Positions 1,204 through 35,135 of a stretch of 64,000 bases of DNA are shown piece by piece. The stretch lies in the NCBI RefSeq assembly GCF_003018235.1, contig NZ_CP027437.1; one strand, written 5' to 3'. The DNA is from Escherichia coli (GTDB lineage: Bacteria; Pseudomonadota; Gammaproteobacteria; Enterobacterales; Enterobacteriaceae). Within the stretch, counting starts at the first letter, position 1; every line of letters starts with the position of its first letter. Position numbers and translations under genes: made by a program. The notes under the pieces were generated by a model, which saw only the letters and a program-made list of their open reading frames with translations, ran no database searches and was not told where the DNA came from.

Positions 1204-3126
1204 ATGACCGTGTATTCAGCGGGAGGTCCGCGCATGCCTGAGCCGGAAGAAGAACAGGCATTCACTGAAGAGGTGAACAGCGCCTTTTCCGGGCTGCCTC
1301 GTTTTGTGTCTGTAAAGCTGGGGCGCAGGATCAGCAGCGCATGGCAGACAAAGGGTTTTGCCGGTGCACGGGAAAAATTTGCGCTGATGGTTCAGAAGGA
1401 TTTGCCGTTCATTACCGGGGTGAATAAACGTTATGCCATTAATCCGGATGAATTACCGGGGTGGCTGTTTGGTGGGCTGGCATCTGATCAGGCATACGGT
1501 GCGGTTCATTCCATGACCTGGCGATTTAATGCCATGGTGGATGGTGACGACGGGGATGCGCATTTACTGGCTCAGGATCTGTCCGTGTTTCTTATTGCTG
1601 AAATGCAGCACCTGAGTGTTCTTCTTGCGGATGAAGATGCGGATGCGGCGGCAGATGCCATTTATGCCATGGTTGCCGGGCTTGTTGAGCATTTCCGGAT
1701 GGAGCCACCGGACTGGAAGCGTTTTATTGGCAGAAAGCTGACACTGGAGCAACTGACTGTTGCCATCAGCCGGATGCTGAGTGTTCGCTGGTGGCAGGGA
1801 AAACTCAGGGCATTCTCCCGTCGCTGGCGTGAACATCTGCTTATAGCTATGGGTGTCGTTCGTCGGCAGTCTTCACCGCACTGCAGTTATGAATGGGTGC
1901 AGAGGTGGCTGGCGGGGCGTAAGCACGGTCGAAGGCTGATGGCGGAAACGGACGTTGAGGATGAAGAAACAGGAGAAAGATTTTCACTTCTCGATTTGGT
2001 TGACAGCAGCATTTCAGATGCGGAGAAACGCCGCGCAGAGCTGATGACCAGGGTTAAGGGGCTGGAAGATTTAGCCCGTTTTGAAGGTGTGGCGCAGGAG
2101 CAGGGGTATATCGGGCTTTTTTTCACGATGACCGCGCCATCAAAATATCATGCCTGGCTGGAGACAGGATATCGCAATCGTCGTTATAACGGCGCAAGCC
2201 CGAAAGACACACAAAATTATTTCTCCGGACTCTGGCGTCAGATCAGTGCAACGCTGAGGCGCAGGGGGATCGGGATTTTTGGATTAAGAAGTGCCGAACC
2301 GCATCATGACGGAACGCCGCACTGGCATGGTGTTCTCTATGTGCATCAGGAGCATGCTGCCGCCTTACAGGACATTCTTGAGTATTACGCCAACCGCGAT
2401 GATGACGCGGGAAAAACGCCCATCCGCAAAGCAGGAAGAAAATCCCACCTGGAAATAAAACCGGTTCTTGATGATCTGGGGAGTGCCTCTGCCTATATCG
2501 CCAAGCATATTGGAATGAATCTTGACGGTTGTGCGCCAGGCGGAATGAATCATGAAACGGGCCATACACTGGTGGTCACTGCCCGCCACGCCTCGGCGTG
2601 GGCGTCATTATGGGGGATCAAGCAGTTTCAGTTTATAGGCAGCACACCGGTAAGTGTATGGCGTGAGCTGCGTCGCTTTAACAATCAGGCTCATGCTGAC
2701 CGGATAAGCCCGGCGCTGGGTGAGTTACACCGTGCAGCCAGTGAGGGTGACTGGAAAACCTATACCAGGCTGCAGGGTGGACCGTTTGTGGCACGAAGAG
2801 ATCTGGTCCTTCGCACATGGTATCAGCGTTCGGAGGAGCCGGATGAGTGTGGGCTACACACCAGTGCGATCAAAGGTGTTTATATGCCGGGGCGTGATAC
2901 GCCACCGGTAGTGACGCGTTCACGTAACTGGAGGATCACCCGGAACGTTACAACAGGCGCTCTCAATGTTAACCGGGGGTCTGCTTTAACGCCCTGGACT
3001 TGTGTCAATAACTGCATTTCGGGCAGAAAACGACCAGATGGTCATCCTCCGGATCCAGGTATAAGGATCCCTGTTCAACTGGAACTGAACTTCGGGGAAG
3101 AGAATAAAGGGAAAAGTGAGCAGTAA
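1204..3126 (+). CDS. phage replication initiation endonuclease, HUH rolling-circle type (P2/186 gpA-like)
   Basis: 640-aa ORF with GGGAGGA RBS; HUH motif set FFTMTAP, PHWHGVLYV and YIAKHIG in canonical order. Confidence 0.7.
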   Translation: MTVYSAGGPRMPEPEEEQAFTEEVNSAFSGLPRFVSVKLGRRISSAWQTKGFAGAREKFALMVQKDLPFITGVNKRYAINPDELPGWLFGGLASDQAYGAVHSMTWRFNAMVDGDDGDAHLLAQDLSVFLIAEMQHLSVLLADEDADAAADAIYAMVAGLVEHFRMEPPDWKRFIGRKLTLEQLTVAISRMLSVRWWQGKLRAFSRRWREHLLIAMGVVRRQSSPHCSYEWVQRWLAGRKHGRRLMAETDVEDEETGERFSLLDLVDSSISDAEKRRAELMTRVKGLEDLARFEGVAQEQGYIGLFFTMTAPSKYHAWLETGYRNRRYNGASPKDTQNYFSGLWRQISATLRRRGIGIFGLRSAEPHHDGTPHWHGVLYVHQEHAAALQDILEYYANRDDDAGKTPIRKAGRKSHLEIKPVLDDLGSASAYIAKHIGMNLDGCAPGGMNHETGHTLVVTARHASAWASLWGIKQFQFIGSTPVSVWRELRRFNNQAHADRISPALGELHRAASEGDWKTYTRLQGGPFVARRDLVLRTWYQRSEEPDECGLHTSAIKGVYMPGRDTPPVVTRSRNWRITRNVTTGALNVNRGSALTPWTCVNNCISGRKRPDGHPPDPGIRIPVQLELNFGEENKGKSEQ

Positions 3127-3253
3127 ATTTTCCGGTTAAGTCAGCGGAAGAAACTGGACTTGTCCGGAGAATAAAAATACCGGTTTTACCTGGGCATGGT
3201 TTTATATACAGTGTCGCTGTATGGCGACAGTTAAGTGAAAAATGAGGTGGAAC

Positions 3254-3523
3254 ATGAGAGGACTGGAGCTTGAACGAATGACGCCGGAAAAAATGCATGC
3301 AATTGGTATGGAGTTCATCAGGAGATCTGAGGCCATGACGCAGGCGGGGATGACAAAAGACGCTGTCAGAAAAAATCTGCTTCCGGCGATACAGCGCCTG
3401 AACCGTGCAAAACATGAGCTTCAGATGGTGGTTGATCAGATGATCGATAAGGCAGCAGAGCTGGAAAAGTATAGCAGTGCGCTTGAAAAAATCATTCAGG
3501 ATATTGTGGGCACTGAGCAGTAA
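3254..3523 (+). CDS. hypothetical helical prophage protein (89 aa)
   Basis: ATG preceded by GAGGTGG RBS; first gene of a tightly spaced three-gene cassette. Confidence 0.4.
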   Translation: MRGLELERMTPEKMHAIGMEFIRRSEAMTQAGMTKDAVRKNLLPAIQRLNRAKHELQMVVDQMIDKAAELEKYSSALEKIIQDIVGTEQ

Positions 3524-3533
3524 GAGGTGGGGT

Positions 3534-4613
3534 ATGCAGGCGATCCTGACGGTATTCCCGCAGCGTAATGCCGGGATAACACTGATGAAAACAGGTAATC
3601 TGACAGCGCGGTTCAGGGACGGGCAGAGAATAATGATAAGGGATGTTCCGTCTGTGATGGCTGGGATGCCATCAGGAGAAATTCCGTCATCAGGACAGAG
3701 GCTGGCGGAAGAGGAAGGACTGACGGCTTTCTTTGCTGACGGAAGGGTAATAAAGCGTGCTGGTGGCAGTGATGCCATGGCGCGTTGGGTGAGCAGGATT
3801 GCAGGCTGCCAGTGTGAGAATGGTGATCACGTGGAGAACATGACAACAGCGCGGACAATGCAGGGAGAGGCGCTTCGGTTATGCCATGCCTGTGATAATC
3901 ATCATTATATGAAAGGATATCGGGCGCTGGCAGATGTGGCAGCCAGAAATCGTGCAGAATGGCTGATGGATTATATCAGGATGAGTCTGGGGCTGGGGGA
4001 AGATCATCAGGTGACCATTCCTGAGTTGTTTTGCTGGGCAGTGCTGAATGATGTGGCAGATGCTGTTCCGGTTATGATCGTAAGGCGTATCAGACAATTG
4101 CCGGAAGAGGAAAAGCTGAGCGGCACGATGAAAGAAGCAGATATTAATCCCTGGCAGACATCAGCAGGCACAGTGGTGAAGAAACTGGCAGATAATGCGA
4201 AGAGCGTTAATGTGTGCAATGTGCGGGTCAGACATGCAGTACGCCAGGAAGAACACAAAGAAATGGAAAAACCGGTGCTGAAACTTGTTGCAGACAGTGA
4301 TCCGGCTGCGGGCTATATGAGGAAGCCCAGAATGCAGCGGCTGTCTCTGCCGGGTTATACCTCGTGGGTGAAGCGTCAGCGATGCTGTGGATGCGGGAAA
4401 CCTGCAGATGATCCGCATCACATCACCGGGCACGGTTTTGGTGGTGCAGGGATAAAAGCCAGTGATTTGTTTGTGATCCCGCTGTGTCGGCAATGTCATC
4501 AGGAATTACACAATGACAGCAAGGCATGGGAGGAGAAAAACGGCAGTCAGTTGCTGTGGGTGATAAGGACGCTGGACAGGGCAGCGGGCATTGGCGCTTT
4601 AGTTGGGGGGTAA
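3534..4613 (+). CDS. Cys/His-rich prophage protein, resembles YdfU/DUF968 family (from memory)
   Basis: ATG with AGAGGTGGGG RBS; C-terminal CCGCGKPADDPHHITGHGFGG...IPLCRQCHQELHN zinc-binding-like cluster and internal CQCENGDH...CHACDNHHY cluster; size about 359 aa. Confidence 0.4.
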   Translation: MQAILTVFPQRNAGITLMKTGNLTARFRDGQRIMIRDVPSVMAGMPSGEIPSSGQRLAEEEGLTAFFADGRVIKRAGGSDAMARWVSRIAGCQCENGDHVENMTTARTMQGEALRLCHACDNHHYMKGYRALADVAARNRAEWLMDYIRMSLGLGEDHQVTIPELFCWAVLNDVADAVPVMIVRRIRQLPEEEKLSGTMKEADINPWQTSAGTVVKKLADNAKSVNVCNVRVRHAVRQEEHKEMEKPVLKLVADSDPAAGYMRKPRMQRLSLPGYTSWVKRQRCCGCGKPADDPHHITGHGFGGAGIKASDLFVIPLCRQCHQELHNDSKAWEEKNGSQLLWVIRTLDRAAGIGALVGG

Positions 4614-4614
4614 C

Positions 4615-5319
4615 ATGACACCGCAACAGATGGTATGGGCGAGAGAGCAGGTTATTTTTGCACTGAATCCACCGGATAAACGTCAGAAGGGGCAACTGGA
4701 GGCATTTGGTGATTTTGCCAGGTCAGACACCAGGCGTTACGGGAGGCAGAGAAACAGGACACTGAACATTGATGGCCGGTGGTATTGTCAGGATGGTGAT
4801 CCGGTACATGCTGCGGCAACAGCCTGTTATGCAATACAACCGGATATGATCACCAGGGAAGCGTTCAGAACGGCACAACTGAGGAGGAGGATTTATTGTC
4901 TGGAGGATTATCATCGGGCCTGGGTGTTATTCAGTTACAGCTTGCAGAAAAAACGAATACACCATCTTCTGGTCAGTGAGTACATCTGGATGAGGATGTT
5001 CGAGCGGTTGCAGGGGAAACGGGTTACGGACAGGATGACAGGAAATCTGATTGAAATAGCGAGGATGGCTGCATGGAATGCTGCAGTGACAGCCGGTGGG
5101 ATTGTTGCAGGTAAGGTTCTGATTGCTCCTTCATGTGCGGCGCAGATTGCAGGTGTAAAACCAAACACATGGAGTCAGCATTACAAGGCTCACTGGTGTT
5201 TTATGCATGAAGTATGCGATGAACTGGATCATGAGGCGCTGGTGACCATTACAGGAATAAAAAATCACCAAAAAAACGGCGAAAAATATAAATTTGCTAA
5301 AGTGAATATTTTAAGGTAG
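4615..5319 (+). CDS. hypothetical protein, candidate Q-type late antiterminator (by position and size only)
   Basis: Start 1 nt after upstream stop; 234 aa; followed immediately by promoter-like hexamers and a strong intrinsic terminator, as for Q/PR-prime/tR-prime. Confidence 0.3.
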   Translation: MTPQQMVWAREQVIFALNPPDKRQKGQLEAFGDFARSDTRRYGRQRNRTLNIDGRWYCQDGDPVHAAATACYAIQPDMITREAFRTAQLRRRIYCLEDYHRAWVLFSYSLQKKRIHHLLVSEYIWMRMFERLQGKRVTDRMTGNLIEIARMAAWNAAVTAGGIVAGKVLIAPSCAAQIAGVKPNTWSQHYKAHWCFMHEVCDELDHEALVTITGIKNHQKNGEKYKFAKVNILR

Positions 5320-5322
5320 ATT
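5294..5322 (+). promoter_or_regulatory. candidate sigma70 promoter (possible PR-prime analogue): TTGCTA, 17-nt spacer, TAGATT
   Basis: Hexamers read directly at 5294-5299 and 5317-5322, at the 3-prime end of the candidate Q gene. Confidence 0.25.
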
Positions 5323-5363
5323 TGAGGCAAATTTGATAGTCTGCCGTATTTGTAAGCAGAGCA

Positions 5364-5390
5364 TAAACCCGCATATTGCGGGTTTTTTTA
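5364..5390 (+). terminator. intrinsic terminator (AACCCGCA-TATT-TGCGGGTT plus T7)
   Basis: Perfect GC-rich hairpin followed by TTTTTTT. Confidence 0.65.
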
Positions 5391-5513
5391 TGCCCGAAAT
5401 TTTCCCTCAGCGCAATAAATACGCTGGTGGTTGTGAGTACCGGTCTTTCAGCTTGCTGGCTTTTTCGACAAGAGTTATTGGTATGCCACGTTAACCGGAC
5501 AGGGGGAAAAGAC

Positions 5514-5711
5514 ATGCTGAAACAGCAGGATATGACAGAAACCGCCAGGGTGGTGTTTAATGAATTAAGCATTACCGAACCGGCGACCGTCGGGGAAATA
5601 GCGCAGAATACCTGCCTTTCACGTGAACGCTGCCAGTTAATACTGACTCAGCTTGTTATGGCGGGTCTGGCTGACTATCAGTTCGGTTGTTACAGACGCC
5701 TTCAGCAATGA
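5514..5711 (+). CDS. small winged-helix-like DNA-binding protein (65 aa)
   Basis: ATG with AGGGGGAAAAG RBS; helix-turn-helix-like segment VGEIAQNTCLSRERCQLILTQLVMAGL. Confidence 0.45.
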   Translation: MLKQQDMTETARVVFNELSITEPATVGEIAQNTCLSRERCQLILTQLVMAGLADYQFGCYRRLQQ

Positions 5712-5862
5712 AGGCATTCTTTTATTGTGAAGATGGGCGACTGGTTAGGTGTTACAGCACCCAACCAGTCATTCGCTCATGCTTGAAGGTCACAAGCGAA
5801 CCCAGGCCCACCGCTTTTGCACAAAAGCCCGGAGAGCCTACCGGAGATGAGTTTGTTGATCT

Positions 5863-6930
5863 ATGACGCATGTTGTAAAAATATCAGAAAGTGAACTGGT
5901 CAATGCTGACTGCCTGGAATTTATACACACGTTGCCAGATGACAGTATTGACCTGATCGTTACCGATCCACCGTACTTTAAAGTGAAACCCAATGGCTGG
6001 GATAACCAGTGGAAGGGTGATGAAGATTACCTGAAGTGGCTGGATCAGTGTCTTGCGCAGTTCTGGCGGGTGCTGAAACCTGCCGGAAGTCTTTACCTGT
6101 TCTGTGGCCATCGCCTGGCATCTGACATCGAAATCATGATGCGTGAACGCTTTAATGTGCTGAACCATATTATCTGGGCGAAGCCGTCCGGACGCTGGAA
6201 CGGATGCAACAAGGAAAGCCTGAGGGCGTATTTCCCGGCCACAGAGCGCATTCTGTTCGCGGAACACTATCTGGAGCCGTATCGCCCGAAAGATGATGGT
6301 TATGAGGCGAAGGGCAGGGCACTGAAACAGCATGTGATGGCACCGCTGATTTCTTACTTTCGTGATGCGCGTGCCGCCCTTGGGATAACGGCAAAACAGA
6401 TTGCTGATGTCACAGGAAAGAAAAACATGGTGTCGCACTGGTTCAGTGCCAGTCAGTGGCAGCTGCCGAACGAAAGCGATTATCTGAAATTACAGGCGCT
6501 GTTTGCCCGGGTGGCAGAAGAGAAGCATCAGCGCGGAGAACTGGAAAAGCCACACCACCAGCTGGTGGTAACGTATACCTCACTGAACCGGCAGTATGCG
6601 GAGTTGCTGAGTGAATACAAAAATCTGCGCCGGTATTTTGGCGTGACGGCGCGGGTCCCGTACACCGATGTGTGGACGCACAAGCCGGTCCAGTTTTACC
6701 CGGGTAAACACCCCTGTGAAAAACCGGCGGAGATGCTGCGGCAGATAATTTGTGCGAGCAGCCGTCCTGGTGACATGGTGGCGGATTTCTTTATGGGGTC
6801 GGGCTCAACCATAAAAGCCGCTATGGCGCTGGGGCGTCGTGCAATTGGTGTTGAACTGGAAGAGGAACGTTTTGCGCAGACCGTGAAAGAGATTAGTCAT
6901 ATCCTGACAGGCTCAATTGATGACGGATAA
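5863..6930 (+). CDS. orphan DNA amino-methyltransferase (N6-adenine/N4-cytosine, beta-class motif order)
   Basis: TDPPYF (motif IV) near N-terminus and FFMGSGST (motif I) near C-terminus; no adjacent restriction endonuclease. Confidence 0.8.
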   Translation: MTHVVKISESELVNADCLEFIHTLPDDSIDLIVTDPPYFKVKPNGWDNQWKGDEDYLKWLDQCLAQFWRVLKPAGSLYLFCGHRLASDIEIMMRERFNVLNHIIWAKPSGRWNGCNKESLRAYFPATERILFAEHYLEPYRPKDDGYEAKGRALKQHVMAPLISYFRDARAALGITAKQIADVTGKKNMVSHWFSASQWQLPNESDYLKLQALFARVAEEKHQRGELEKPHHQLVVTYTSLNRQYAELLSEYKNLRRYFGVTARVPYTDVWTHKPVQFYPGKHPCEKPAEMLRQIICASSRPGDMVADFFMGSGSTIKAAMALGRRAIGVELEEERFAQTVKEISHILTGSIDDG

Positions 6931-7457: not shown

Positions 7458-7534
7458 GCGCCGTTAGCTCAGCTGGACAGAGCAATTGCCTTCTAAGCAA
7501 TCGGTCACTGGTTCGAATCCAGTATGGCGCACCA
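7458..7534 (+). tRNA. tRNA-Arg (anticodon TCT, reads AGA)
   Basis: Cloverleaf folded by hand: 7-bp acceptor stem, perfect 5-bp anticodon stem ATTGC/GCAAT, loop CTTCTAA, T-loop TTCGAAT, encoded CCA. Confidence 0.85.
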
Positions 7535-7535
7535 T

Positions 7536-7610
7536 GCGGTCATCGTATAATGGCTATTACCTCGGCCTTCCAGGCTGATGATGCGGGTTCGATTCCAGCT
7601 GGCCGCTCCA
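7536..7610 (+). tRNA. tRNA-Gly (anticodon TCC), glyT-like with one T-stem mismatch
   Basis: 75 nt, near-identical to E. coli glyT recalled from memory; anticodon loop CTTCCAG; acceptor stem with one G-U; T-stem GCGGG/CCAGC has a G-A mismatch. Confidence 0.7.
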
Positions 7611-7979: not shown

Positions 7980-8321
7980 GATGTTTGGTTGCGTATTGTA
8001 TAGGCAAGTTGCGGATTCTGTCTGGTCATTGCAGAATTCACCGGGAGGCACCCGGCACCATGCAGATAATTGTTTTGTGGATGATAATACCAGCCCCTCT
8101 CCGGAGGGGCTTTCTTATGGGCGAAAAAAAGCCCGGGGAGCCGGGCAATAGCATGAGATATACGTTTTTATAGACGTACAGATTTTAATCAGAATTTATG
8201 GGGCTGCGCAACTGCGTGGCCTTTTTTGTTTTGTGGGCTAAGGTTTTCCCCTTTGATTCGCCATGTGGCTGAACCTGTAGCCCGCCACTGTTCAGACGCA
8301 ATCCCGGCAAGGGGAGGAATA

Positions 8322-10349
8322 ATGGCATTTAAACACTACGATCTGGTCTCTGCCAGCAGCGGTGATGAACTGCAAAAGAAACTGACAGAAAAAATAAATG
8401 AAGGGTGGCAGCCATACGGTTCGCCGCTTGTTTCGTATGACGATAACGGGATGAAAATTATTCAGGCCATTGCAGCAGAGGGTGATGTCAGGATCCCGGT
8501 TGAAACGCCTGATGATGGTGGTGATTCACCGGTCACAATGACCTCCGGTGCACCTGATTATTATTATGTTGTTGTGCTTGCCGGACAGTCCAACGGCATG
8601 GCCTACGGTGAGGGGCTTCCGTTACCGGACTCTTATGACCGCCCGGACCCGCGCATTAAACAGCTGGCACGCCGCAGTACAGTGACGCCGGGTGGGGACG
8701 CCTGTGCATACAATGATGTGATTCCGGCTGACCATTGTCTGCATGATGTACAGGATATGAGCGGTGTTAATCATCCGAAAGCGGACCTGAATAAGGGGCA
8801 GTATGGCTGTGTCAGTCAGGGGCTGCATATTGCCAAAAAACTGCTGTCGTATATCCCGCAGAATGCAGGGATACTTCTGGTGCCCTGCTGCCGTGGTGGT
8901 TCTGCATTCACCACCGGGGCTGACGGCACATTCAGTGAGGTCACCGGCGCATCCGCTGACGCTGCACGCTGGGGTGCCGGTAAACCCCTGTATCAGGACA
9001 TGGTCAGCCGGACAAAAGCGGCGCTGGCCAAGAACCCGAAAAACAGGCTGCTGGCGGTGGTATGGATGCAGGGCGAGGCAGACCTTGCGTCAGGCAGTCA
9101 GCAGCATAACGGGTTATTCACGGCCATGGTTCAGCAGTTCCGGACTGACCTGTCCTCACTTGCTGCGCAGTGCGTGAGTGGCAATGCTGCCACGGTGCCG
9201 TGGATTTGTGGTGATACCACGTATTACTGGAAGGCCACTTATGGCACACAGTATGAAGCCATTTATGGAGCCTATAAGAATCTGTCCGCACAGAATATTT
9301 TCTTTGTACCGTTCCTGACAGATGAAAACGGCGCAAACACGCCAACGAACCAGCCAGCGGAAGACCCGGATATTGTGGCTGTGGGGTATTACGGTGCGGC
9401 ATCACGAACACAGGCGAACTGGACGACAGCGCAACGTGACAGCCATTTCAGCACCTGGGCGCGTCGCGGCATCATTTCTGACCGCCTTGCGTCAGCTATT
9501 CTGGTGCACGCGGGACGTACGTCAGGTTTCATTACCGGTGAAGTTTCTTCTCCGGACACTGCATCCGGTGACGGTGGTTCGTCCACTGATGCGGGTACGG
9601 ATGCGGGGACCGGCACTTCCGGAACAGGAAGTGATGACGCTACCGGAACGACACCAGCCACCGCTGCCATTATTCTGAGTGCAGACGGAGGGGATGTTTC
9701 GGCACAGGGCTGGACGGTGGAAGGCACCACGGTGACCACCACGGCAAACACGGTGACTTCATCGGGTGAGGCGCTGGCGCAGAATGTGCTGAGTGTTCCG
9801 AAACAGAGCGGGGCAGCATGGAAGCTTGTTCATACCACCACAGATGAGCCAGCGGAACTGCTGAACAATGGCGGTGAGTTCCTGTGTCGTTTCCGTATCA
9901 CGGATACTGCCATTGCTGAGGGGCGTTATGCCTTTGGTCTTTACTGGCTTCCGGACGCACAGAAGATACCAGCCGGTGCGACATTCAATAAAACAGGAAG
10001 CGGGATGTCCCCGTCCATGCTCAACTTCTATGTCCAGACGGATGGCAGCAACATAAACCTGTTATCACACTGCAGTACGAAGAGTGCAGGGAATCTGAAG
10101 ATTGGCTCATTCGGTGCATTTAACAATGAATGGCATACCTTCCGTCTTCGCTACCATGGTGGCAATACGGCAAGAGCAACGGTGACGCTGGACAGTCAGG
10201 TGGTGGGAGATATAACGCTGTTATGTGCGCCGTCAGCGGCCAGTGCCGGTGACACTCTGTCGATGATAAGTATCACATCGGGTGATACATACAGTATTGA
10301 AGTGGAAAGCCTGAGTGTGACGGTGAACGGGGCTGCGGCAGCGGCGTGA
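8322..10349 (+). CDS. prophage sialate O-acetylesterase-like protein (NanS-p-like) with long C-terminal Thr/Gly-rich domain
   Basis: GGGGAGGAATA RBS then ATG; SASA-type catalytic motif VLAGQSNGMAYGEG; N-terminal region resembling DUF1737; position equivalent to the esterase gene downstream of stx in Stx phages. Confidence 0.6.
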   Translation: MAFKHYDLVSASSGDELQKKLTEKINEGWQPYGSPLVSYDDNGMKIIQAIAAEGDVRIPVETPDDGGDSPVTMTSGAPDYYYVVVLAGQSNGMAYGEGLPLPDSYDRPDPRIKQLARRSTVTPGGDACAYNDVIPADHCLHDVQDMSGVNHPKADLNKGQYGCVSQGLHIAKKLLSYIPQNAGILLVPCCRGGSAFTTGADGTFSEVTGASADAARWGAGKPLYQDMVSRTKAALAKNPKNRLLAVVWMQGEADLASGSQQHNGLFTAMVQQFRTDLSSLAAQCVSGNAATVPWICGDTTYYWKATYGTQYEAIYGAYKNLSAQNIFFVPFLTDENGANTPTNQPAEDPDIVAVGYYGAASRTQANWTTAQRDSHFSTWARRGIISDRLASAILVHAGRTSGFITGEVSSPDTASGDGGSSTDAGTDAGTGTSGTGSDDATGTTPATAAIILSADGGDVSAQGWTVEGTTVTTTANTVTSSGEALAQNVLSVPKQSGAAWKLVHTTTDEPAELLNNGGEFLCRFRITDTAIAEGRYAFGLYWLPDAQKIPAGATFNKTGSGMSPSMLNFYVQTDGSNINLLSHCSTKSAGNLKIGSFGAFNNEWHTFRLRYHGGNTARATVTLDSQVVGDITLLCAPSAASAGDTLSMISITSGDTYSIEVESLSVTVNGAAAAA

Positions 10350-34475: not shown

Positions 34476-35135
34476 ATAAAAAAAGCGGGGCCACCCCCGG
34501 GCCCCGACATAACGAAGTATCAGATGTTTATAATTATTAGCTTACTAACTGTGCCATATCAGAATACTGCAGGAAGTGATGTTGTTATCATTTTTGCAAG
34601 CAGGGCGTTTCTGGAGGGAATCGATTGGTGATGGAGTGTGCAATGATGAAGGGAATAAGCCTCTGCAAAACAAAAAAAGACTTTAACAAAATCAAGCTCG
34701 CTTAGTGGCGCATCTGCCCGTATCCGCACCAGTCGTCCGGAAAATGATTCAAACACCGGGCGGCAAAAGTATTACCAGTGTAGCAACCTGGAATGCGGCG
34801 TATGCTTCTCAACTCTGGCAGCTTTCCATAAATTCACATCGAAACACGCTTCCGGCGTTCACTCTTCAGAAGGTATCCCGTGGCATGAACTGCCAGCTTC
34901 ACACTGGTGAAACAATCAGATGACTTTTCCTTTACCTCAAATTAACAGGCAGAATTGCCGGAGTAACAAAAAAACGATAGATTACGCGCGGGTGCCTTTC
35001 GGCTGATGGTCGGAGGGAATACCCGAAGGCCAGATGTGGAAAGGCCCCGGAAAACACTTTTGTTTAACCGAGGCCCTAACCGTCTACCCTAAGCAAGTGA
35101 TAGGTTAGCGCCTCCCCGAAAAAGGAGCAAGCGCT

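Follow-up and report, generated by a model that had tools for sequence, protein, structure and literature searches.

A probable phage 82-type late-gene switch at the 3' end of a divergent antiterminator Q gene in an Escherichia coli prophage

Introduction

Which element turns on the late genes in a prophage whose early module is P2-like and whose late region is lambdoid? This question is raised by a prophage in a 64,000-nucleotide (nt) stretch of the Escherichia coli chromosome (contig NZ_CP027437.1 of assembly GCF_003018235.1; hereafter, the window), which is 96 to 99% identical to strain CFIAFB20140388. In this prophage, a cassette of three genes follows the gene for the replication endonuclease gpA, and a sequence-only reading had proposed that the last of the three encodes an antiterminator Q and that Q is followed by its late promoter, PR', and the terminator tR'. 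Here, from profile and full-length pairwise matches, we assign the product of gene 3 of the cassette to the phage 82 family of Q antiterminators, within which it is divergent. Alignment shows that the late promoter is clearly homologous to phage 82 pR'; it overlaps the 3' end of Q and is followed by a predicted pause element and an intrinsic terminator. We estimate the probability that these elements together form a late-gene switch of the lambdoid type at roughly 85%.

Results

Profile searches place the product of gene 3 in PF06323 (Phage_antiter_Q), with 97.4 bits against a cutoff of 25 and with profile positions 4 to 215 of 220 covered, and match it to phrog_304, "anti-termination protein Q-like," in the PHROGs database (E 7.8e-42). 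PF06323 has been named the Q82 family and is one of three unrelated families of Q proteins (PMC9388147). In a tblastn comparison, the protein aligns with Q of phage 82 over its full length (residues 1 to 232; 28.8% identity; E 7e-24), and an alignment of 18 family members spanning both clades has 20 invariant columns. Searches against solved structures gave no match with either the single sequence or a profile. In the 96 to 99% identical prophage of NZ_CP076709, the Q gene is immediately followed by the late and lysis operon.

Because the phage 82 record stops at the Q stop codon, PhiR47_2 (98.3% DNA identity to phage 82 in the Q gene) and phage 434 (91%) served as stand-ins for the sequence beyond it. 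After Q, PhiR47_2 has TTGCAA, 17 nt, TATATT, 6 nt, and AAATCTGATATTTTGCCAATGTTGTA. The window has TTGCTA (5294 to 5299), 17 nt, TAGATT (5317 to 5322), 6 nt, and, from 5329, AAATTTGATAGTCTGCCGTATTTGTA, and its initial transcribed region AAATTTGATAGTCTGCC matches AAATCTGATATTTTGCC of phage 82. At 82 pR', a near-consensus −10-like pause element with an extended −10 precedes the discriminator, which is GCC and occupies +15 to +17; polymerase pauses mainly at +25 and +26, with U at +25 (PMC5001585). Setting GCC at +15 to +17 in both the window and PhiR47_2 fixes the predicted +1 of the window at A5329, and this homology-based start falls within the interval, 5320 to 5335, in which the sequence-only reading had looked for initiation. 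In this register, the pause element at +6 to +14, GCC at +15 to +17 and T at +25 predict pausing at 5353/5354. Because the Q-binding element of these phages lies between the −35 and the −10 (PMC4914094), the 17-nt spacer at 5300 to 5316 is the candidate for this element (Table 1). The proposed layout of Q, PR' and tR' is thus supported by homology to phage 82 pR' and by the terminator, but the promoter does not follow the gene, as had been suggested; it overlaps the last nine codons and the stop codon of Q. Likewise, the promoter-like hexamers that had been noticed near the 3' end of gene 3 are present, but they are weak and the −35 is within the gene.

This architecture is rare by chance and common in the family. 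A composite pattern derived from phage 82 occurs once in the 64-kb window (5294 to 5345) and in 0 of 100 shuffles. A scan of viral contigs with AAATNTGATANTNTGCC gave 120 loci, ~40 of which are located directly after a gene for a Q82-family protein (25 to 100% identical to Q82); these ~40 loci share the −35, the spacing, the −10, and a terminator within ~40 to 70 nt. This shared layout supports the idea that the 82-type architecture is a family trait and that it is present in the window.

The same sequence could be read differently, with TGaTAGTCT (5334 to 5342) as a real promoter rather than a pause element, in which case transcription would start at ~5349, without a sigma-dependent pause, and yield a leader of ~40 nt. 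TGnTAGTCT is plausible as an extended −10, promoters of this type need no −35, and the hexamers upstream match the consensus at only 8 of 12 positions and went unflagged by the promoter scan. However, the homologous element of phage 82, in the same register at +6 to +17 of a transcript that begins farther upstream, has been shown experimentally to induce pausing (PMC5001585), and all Q82-family loci examined retain the −35, the 17-nt spacing, and the −10 upstream of it. Moreover, a start at 5349 would leave only 16 nt to the terminator stem, too little room for the polymerase to pause and for Q to load. We consider a promoter at this site very unlikely and, therefore, treat the element as the pause element of an 82-type PR'. 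On the minus strand, the scan calls a promoter-like TTAAAA-18 nt-TATATT (9 of 12 positions) at 5285 to 5314 in the A/T-rich PR' region, which is probably an effect of base composition.

The strong terminator that had been described shortly 3' of gene 3 is present: its stem, AAACCCGCA/TGCGGGTTT, spans 5365 to 5385 and runs into seven T at 5383 to 5389. Folding of a 64-nt leader gives −17.7 kcal/mol (z = −3.0). The CCCGC/GCGGG stem is kept, while the loop varies, in the related loci L003 and L004, in the Shiga toxin (Stx) 2a phage Stx2_14040, and in phiP27. In L003, homology to the window ends just past the terminator (window 5387) and a different module follows, suggesting that Q, PR' and tR' move together as one module. 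Conversely, the terminator and the next ~130 nt (window 5357 to 5499) are 82 to 89% identical in Stx2a phages and phiP27, where they are found behind an unrelated Q of 126 residues, and this segment has matches in 2,031 of 5,426 E. coli genomes, although the Q genes differ. The end of homology in L003, together with this recurrence behind an unrelated Q, makes tR' look like the joint between a Q/PR' module and a shared late module, and like a recombination joint that is widely shared. Directly 3' of the TrmB-like gene, at 5698 to 5715, is another terminator-like hairpin (GCCTTCAGCAATGAAGGC, with a T-rich tail after it), which may be one more terminator for Q-modified polymerase to read through.

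Comparison with its relatives suggests that DNA rather than protein is constrained at the promoter. The 19-nt block ATAAATTTGCTAAAGTGAA (window 5286 to 5304), which comprises the −35 and the start of the presumed Q-binding element and lies within the Q reading frame, is invariant in four of four aligned sequences from three lineages. By contrast, among the E. coli relatives L001, L003, and L004, conservation is lowest in the C-terminal tail of Q, which has indels and 60 to 74% identity. The block is even read in different frames, giving ...KFAKVNILR* in the window and ...INLLK* in L003 and L004, and in L001 a one-base slip in the A-run at window 5271 to 5277 causes Q to end early. The invariance of ATAAATTTGCTAAAGTGAA despite the variable tail and the different frames argues that the constraint at this site acts on the DNA. 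We had expected the PR' block to be clearly more conserved than coding DNA; for the block as a whole, this expectation was not borne out.

In relatives in which Q is 42 to 49% identical, the order gpA-(small gene)-DUF968-Q is kept, in one case without the small gene, and these relatives have the same layout of PR', pause element, and terminator. The cassette is rare: only 6 of 5,426 complete E. coli genomes carry it, the protein database has only nine clusters of this Q clade, and viral contigs yielded only one close relative of Q. RefSeq already labels genes 2 and 3 of near-identical E. coli prophages "DUF968" and "antitermination protein Q."

The gene starts at 3254, 3534 and 4615 and the gaps of 10 and 1 nt are exactly as first reported: the stop codon of gene 1 (3521 to 3523) is followed by the ATG of gene 2 at 3534, and the stop codon of gene 2 (4611 to 4613) by the ATG of gene 3 at 4615. 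As for the translational coupling that these gaps had suggested, each start has its own Shine-Dalgarno sequence, GAGGTGG upstream of both 3254 and 3534 and GGGGGG upstream of 4615. Reverse-strand frames at 3005 to 3778, 4161 to 4499, and 5297 to 5572 have no meaningful family match and overlap with conserved forward genes; for these reasons, we treated them as spurious. No cassette protein had a match in NCBIfam.

Gene 2 encodes a DUF968 protein (PF06147; 192.9 bits against a cutoff of 27.8; E 5.6e-57), so that the profile scans proposed by the sequence-only reading, for Q families and for DUF968, were both positive. The protein is Cys/His-rich, as had been noted (11 Cys and 12 His in 359 residues), and its motifs CQC, CHAC, HH, CCGC, HH, and CRQC are invariant in 24 homologues. 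The statement that YdfU-type proteins sit next to Q-like antiterminators in Qin-type prophages was also accurate: in E. coli K-12, ydfU is located 13 nt upstream of ydfT, the gene for a putative antiterminator Q, and YdfU and the gene 2 product align full length with 37% identity (344 residues; E 2e-82). The protein matches phrog_96, "HNH endonuclease," in PHROGs and has a sub-threshold Pfam match to HNH at its C-terminus, where the domain resembles the HNH-type nucleases Ref of phage P1 and YbcO of DLP12 and phage 82. In contrast to these nucleases, DUF968 is three times longer, with an extra N-terminal and middle region that has its own Cys/His cluster and is without a solved relative; the structural model of gene 2 has low confidence outside residues 53 to 186 and 272 to 352.

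Gene 1 matches the C-terminal part of phrog_2565 and is missing in one related cassette (L133). RefSeq starts this gene at the equivalent of window position 3278; however, the Salmonella orthologue, which is 48% identical, aligns from residue 1 of the longer frame (MRGLELER/MRGIDFER), and the start at 3254 is, therefore, the better one. Gene 1 was also considered as Rem of Qin; the two have no similarity.

Upstream of gene 1, the palindrome TGTCGC-N6-GCGACA had been proposed as a potential operator next to a possible promoter. The palindrome exists, with its start one base from the position first given, but nothing sets it apart from chance. Perfect 6-bp inverted repeats of this type occur at 3.3 per kb in the window, and 0.42 are expected in the 127-nt intergenic region, with a chance of ~0.34 of at least one. 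One arm is mismatched in L003, the palindrome is absent from L004, and the consensus scan called no plus-strand promoter next to it, contrary to what had been suggested. As judged by frequency and conservation, the palindrome is probably not an operator. In the same spacer between gpA and gene 1, two blocks are conserved in three lineages, at 3124 to 3148 (AAATTTTCCGGTTAAGTCAGCGGA) and at 3183 to 3212 (GTTTTACCTG...TGnTTTTATATACAGT), the second of which holds a possible extended −10, TGnTTTTAT.

Table 1. Positions of the cassette, the predicted switch elements, and downstream genes in the window
Feature	Position	Strand	Remarks
PR' −35 TTGCTA	5294-5299	+	Within the 3'-terminal codons of Q (FAK); corresponds by homology to TTGCAA in 82 pR'
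17-nt spacer AAGTGAATATTTTAAGG	5300-5316	+	Candidate Q-binding element, from its position between −35 and −10 as in phage 82
PR' −10 TAGATT	5317-5322	+	Overlaps Q stop codon TAG (5317-5319); relatives have TAAATT
Predicted +1	A5329	+	In register with phage 82 pR'
Sigma70-dependent pause element (predicted)	5334-5345	+	As in 82 pR'
Extended −10 TG	5334-5335	+	+6/+7
−10-like TAGTCT	5337-5342	+	+9 to +14
GCC discriminator	5343-5345	+	+15 to +17
Predicted pause positions	5353-5354	+	+25 (T) and +26 (A); expected site of Q loading onto RNA polymerase
Predicted leader RNA	5329-5389	+	~60 nt, would be made without Q
Intrinsic terminator tR'	5365-5389	+	9-bp stem, 3-nt loop, seven T; from terminator scan
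Gene 1	3254-3523	+	89-residue protein; matches C-terminal part of phrog_2565
Gene 2	3534-4613	+	359-residue DUF968/YdfU-type protein; putative zinc-binding Cys/His module in the middle, C-terminal domain similar to the HNH-type nucleases P1 Ref and YbcO
Gene 3	4615-5319	+	234-residue antiterminator Q, phage 82 family (PF06323)
Inverted repeat TGTCGC-N6-GCGACA	3212-3229	.	Real, at chance level, not conserved
TrmB-like gene	5514-5711
DNA methylase gene	5863-6930
tRNA-Arg(TCT) and tRNA-Gly(TCC)	7458-7610
Esterase-like gene	8226-10349		707 residues; DUF6645/SASA-esterase-like

The early module of the prophage is P2-like, with an integrase and Cox (both identified in the near-identical genome) and gpA (1204 to 3126). 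The late region is lambdoid and of the Stx-phage type, with the esterase-like gene followed by lysis, terminase, and tail genes; past Q, the near-identical prophage of NZ_CP076709 has the TrmB-like gene, methylase, tRNAs, esterase-like gene, holin, lysozyme, Rz1, terminase, and portal. From its gene content, the prophage is a hybrid in which P2-type gpA replication is joined to a lambdoid, presumably Q-dependent late region. The tRNAs and the esterase-like gene occupy the position of the tRNAs and stx2e in phiP27; the window has no toxin genes. The remainder of the window is taken up by host genes that extend from raiA across an rRNA operon to rpoE.

Discussion

The comparisons reported here support the earlier interpretation as essentially right. 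The case for a late-gene switch is built on Q family membership, gene order, homology of the promoter and pause element, and presence of the terminator, and we found at this locus every defining feature of a phage 82-type switch that a sequence can reveal. From these features, we infer the start site, pause, Q binding, read-through, and operon structure.

Altogether, these features suggest the following model. The genes for the small protein, DUF968, and Q follow gpA and are probably the distal part of the early operon. Because the scan found no strong plus-strand terminator between gpA and 5365, Q is probably the last gene of the early transcript. Sigma70 RNA polymerase would start at ~A5329 and would be held at ~+25 (5353/5354), where sigma70 would re-bind to TGaTAGTCT-GCC at +6 to +17. 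Without Q, the polymerase would escape the pause, stop at 5365 to 5389, and release a leader RNA of ~60 nt. Once accumulated, Q would bind the spacer element (~5300 to 5316) and join the paused complex, making it terminator resistant. Q-modified transcription would then pass tR' and later terminators and reach the late genes, i.e., the TrmB-like gene, the DNA methylase gene, the two tRNAs, the esterase-like gene, and the lysis, terminase, and structural genes.

Several observations weigh against this model. Q is only 29% identical to Q82. TTGCTA-17 nt-TAGATT, with its 8 of 12 consensus positions, was not flagged by the consensus scan, and the significance of these hexamers lies in their homology to phage 82 pR' and not in their match to the consensus. 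The PR' block as a whole is conserved to the same extent as Q coding DNA (71 to 88% versus 72 to 86%); within it, only specific functional sub-elements are invariant. Finally, the near-identical prophage has several pseudogenes, including recE, the tail gene J, and the tail assembly gene T; the element may be defective, and its switch may go unused.

Alternatively, the hairpin at 5365 to 5389 could be the terminator of the early operon only, in which case the Q-like gene would be a relic and the late genes would be driven otherwise, e.g., by an Ogr/Delta-like gene. A P2-like early module with integrase, Cox, and gpA is in line with this scenario, as is the lack of a strong plus-strand terminator between gpA and 5365 in the scan, so that early transcription would end at the hairpin. 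An Ogr/Delta-like zinc-finger frame is indeed present at the far end of the prophage, at 34722 to 34907; it is, however, without a start codon and without its N-terminal half. By contrast, the Q frame is intact and is conserved, along with the block of PR', pause element, and terminator, in relatives with as little as 42% identity, and the genes farther downstream are late genes of the lambdoid kind seen in Stx phages, whose dependence on Q is known. The two roles of the terminator are also not mutually exclusive. We give a relic Q very little credence and favor the late-gene switch.

How does this locus compare to known systems? It shares with phages 82, 434 and PhiR47_2 a PF06323 Q that aligns over its full length, a −35 of the form TTGCxA in the last Q codons, and the 17-nt spacer. 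The initial transcribed region is near-identical to the 82 type, including the TG-extended pause element, GCC at +15 to +17, and GTA at +24 to +26, and the start is followed within ~65 nt by an intrinsic terminator. Phage 434 has its terminator just as close, and the surrounding sequence, AAACCCGC...GGGTTTTTTTTATGCCC, resembles that of the window. Besides the low identity of Q to Q82, the window differs from phage 82 in its presumed Q-binding spacer (AAGTGAATATTTTAAGG versus AACTGGATTAAAAAGCA), in the location of the Q stop codon (the −10 versus the spacer), in the genes that precede Q (DUF968 versus RusA and YlcG), and in its replication module (P2 gpA type versus lambdoid). Qin of K-12 also has a DUF968 gene, ydfU, directly 5' of a co-oriented gene for an antiterminator Q, ydfT (also known as quuQ); however, YdfT belongs to the lambda-Q family (PF03589, with a zinc-finger region) and has no detectable similarity to Q of the window. 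Similarly, Stx2_14040 resembles the window in having ydfU, Q, a terminator, ~130 nt homologous to 5357 to 5499, a TrmB-like gene, a methylase, and a tRNA, whereas its Q is a different protein of 126 residues and the window is without stx genes.

In lysogens, the PR' transcript of Stx phages ends early, and the PR'-tR' region encoding the small RNA StxS is 258 nt (PMC7547250). The predicted leader of the window is ~60 nt and has no Rfam match. A scan of 5200 to 5600 with Rfam 15 gave sub-threshold matches only, to the Trp leader, isrF, and isrK (best scores 25.9, 23.8, and 20.5 against 41, 40, and 50), which are explained by the terminator hairpin. By analogy with StxS, the leader might act as a small RNA, but we consider this unlikely. 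Gifsy-1 offers another comparison: its AntQ (STM2617) is a Q82-family protein with ~23 to 25% identity to Q of the window, and a small RNA gene follows. This gene, isrK, is, however, part of a leader of the P1-type c4/ant immunity kind (Rfam isrK at 79 bits, c4-a1b1, and C4) rather than an 82-type PR' leader. Homology of the window leader to isrK was, therefore, rejected, given 20.5 bits against a gathering threshold of 50 and a c4/ant-type leader with a different promoter in Gifsy-1. In Gifsy-1 (L009, 3198 to 3396, directly after antQ), isrK overlaps with the c4-a1b1 target element and is followed by the C4 antisense RNA in Rfam annotation, and because of this arrangement the IsrK locus looks like a P1/P7-type immI (c4/ant) leader.

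The 1-nt spacing between the DUF968 gene and Q would be explained if the two proteins were a functional pair, with the putative nuclease acting as a cofactor or regulator of antitermination. The adjacency recurs in related cassettes of this clade, in Qin, and in an Stx2a phage, as would be expected of a pair. However, the Q neighbors in these contexts are of three unrelated types, i.e., PF06323 in the window, PF03589 in Qin, and the 126-residue Q in the Stx2a phage, and other Q82-family phages carry genes for RusA, NinG, DUF1364, or HNH proteins in the slot directly before Q. Because of these unrelated Q types, the other nucleases in the same slot, and the resemblance of the C-terminal domain to P1 Ref and YbcO, the simplest reading is that DUF968 is a recombination/repair nuclease of the nin-region type that merely shares an operon with Q. 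A functional pair appears highly improbable.

On its own, this locus matters little: it marks a probable prophage late-gene switch, and near-identical copies of the DUF968 and Q genes are already annotated. Its value lies in comparison. The Q82 family is without a solved structure, and a Q that is 29% identical to Q82, with an almost unchanged pause element and a different spacer, forms a natural pair with Q82 for mapping DNA specificity. The −35 and the presumed Q-binding DNA lie inside the Q frame, and which of two frames they are translated in depends on the relative. Finally, the cassette documents a slot for DUF968, a putative nuclease, 5' of three unrelated kinds of Q.

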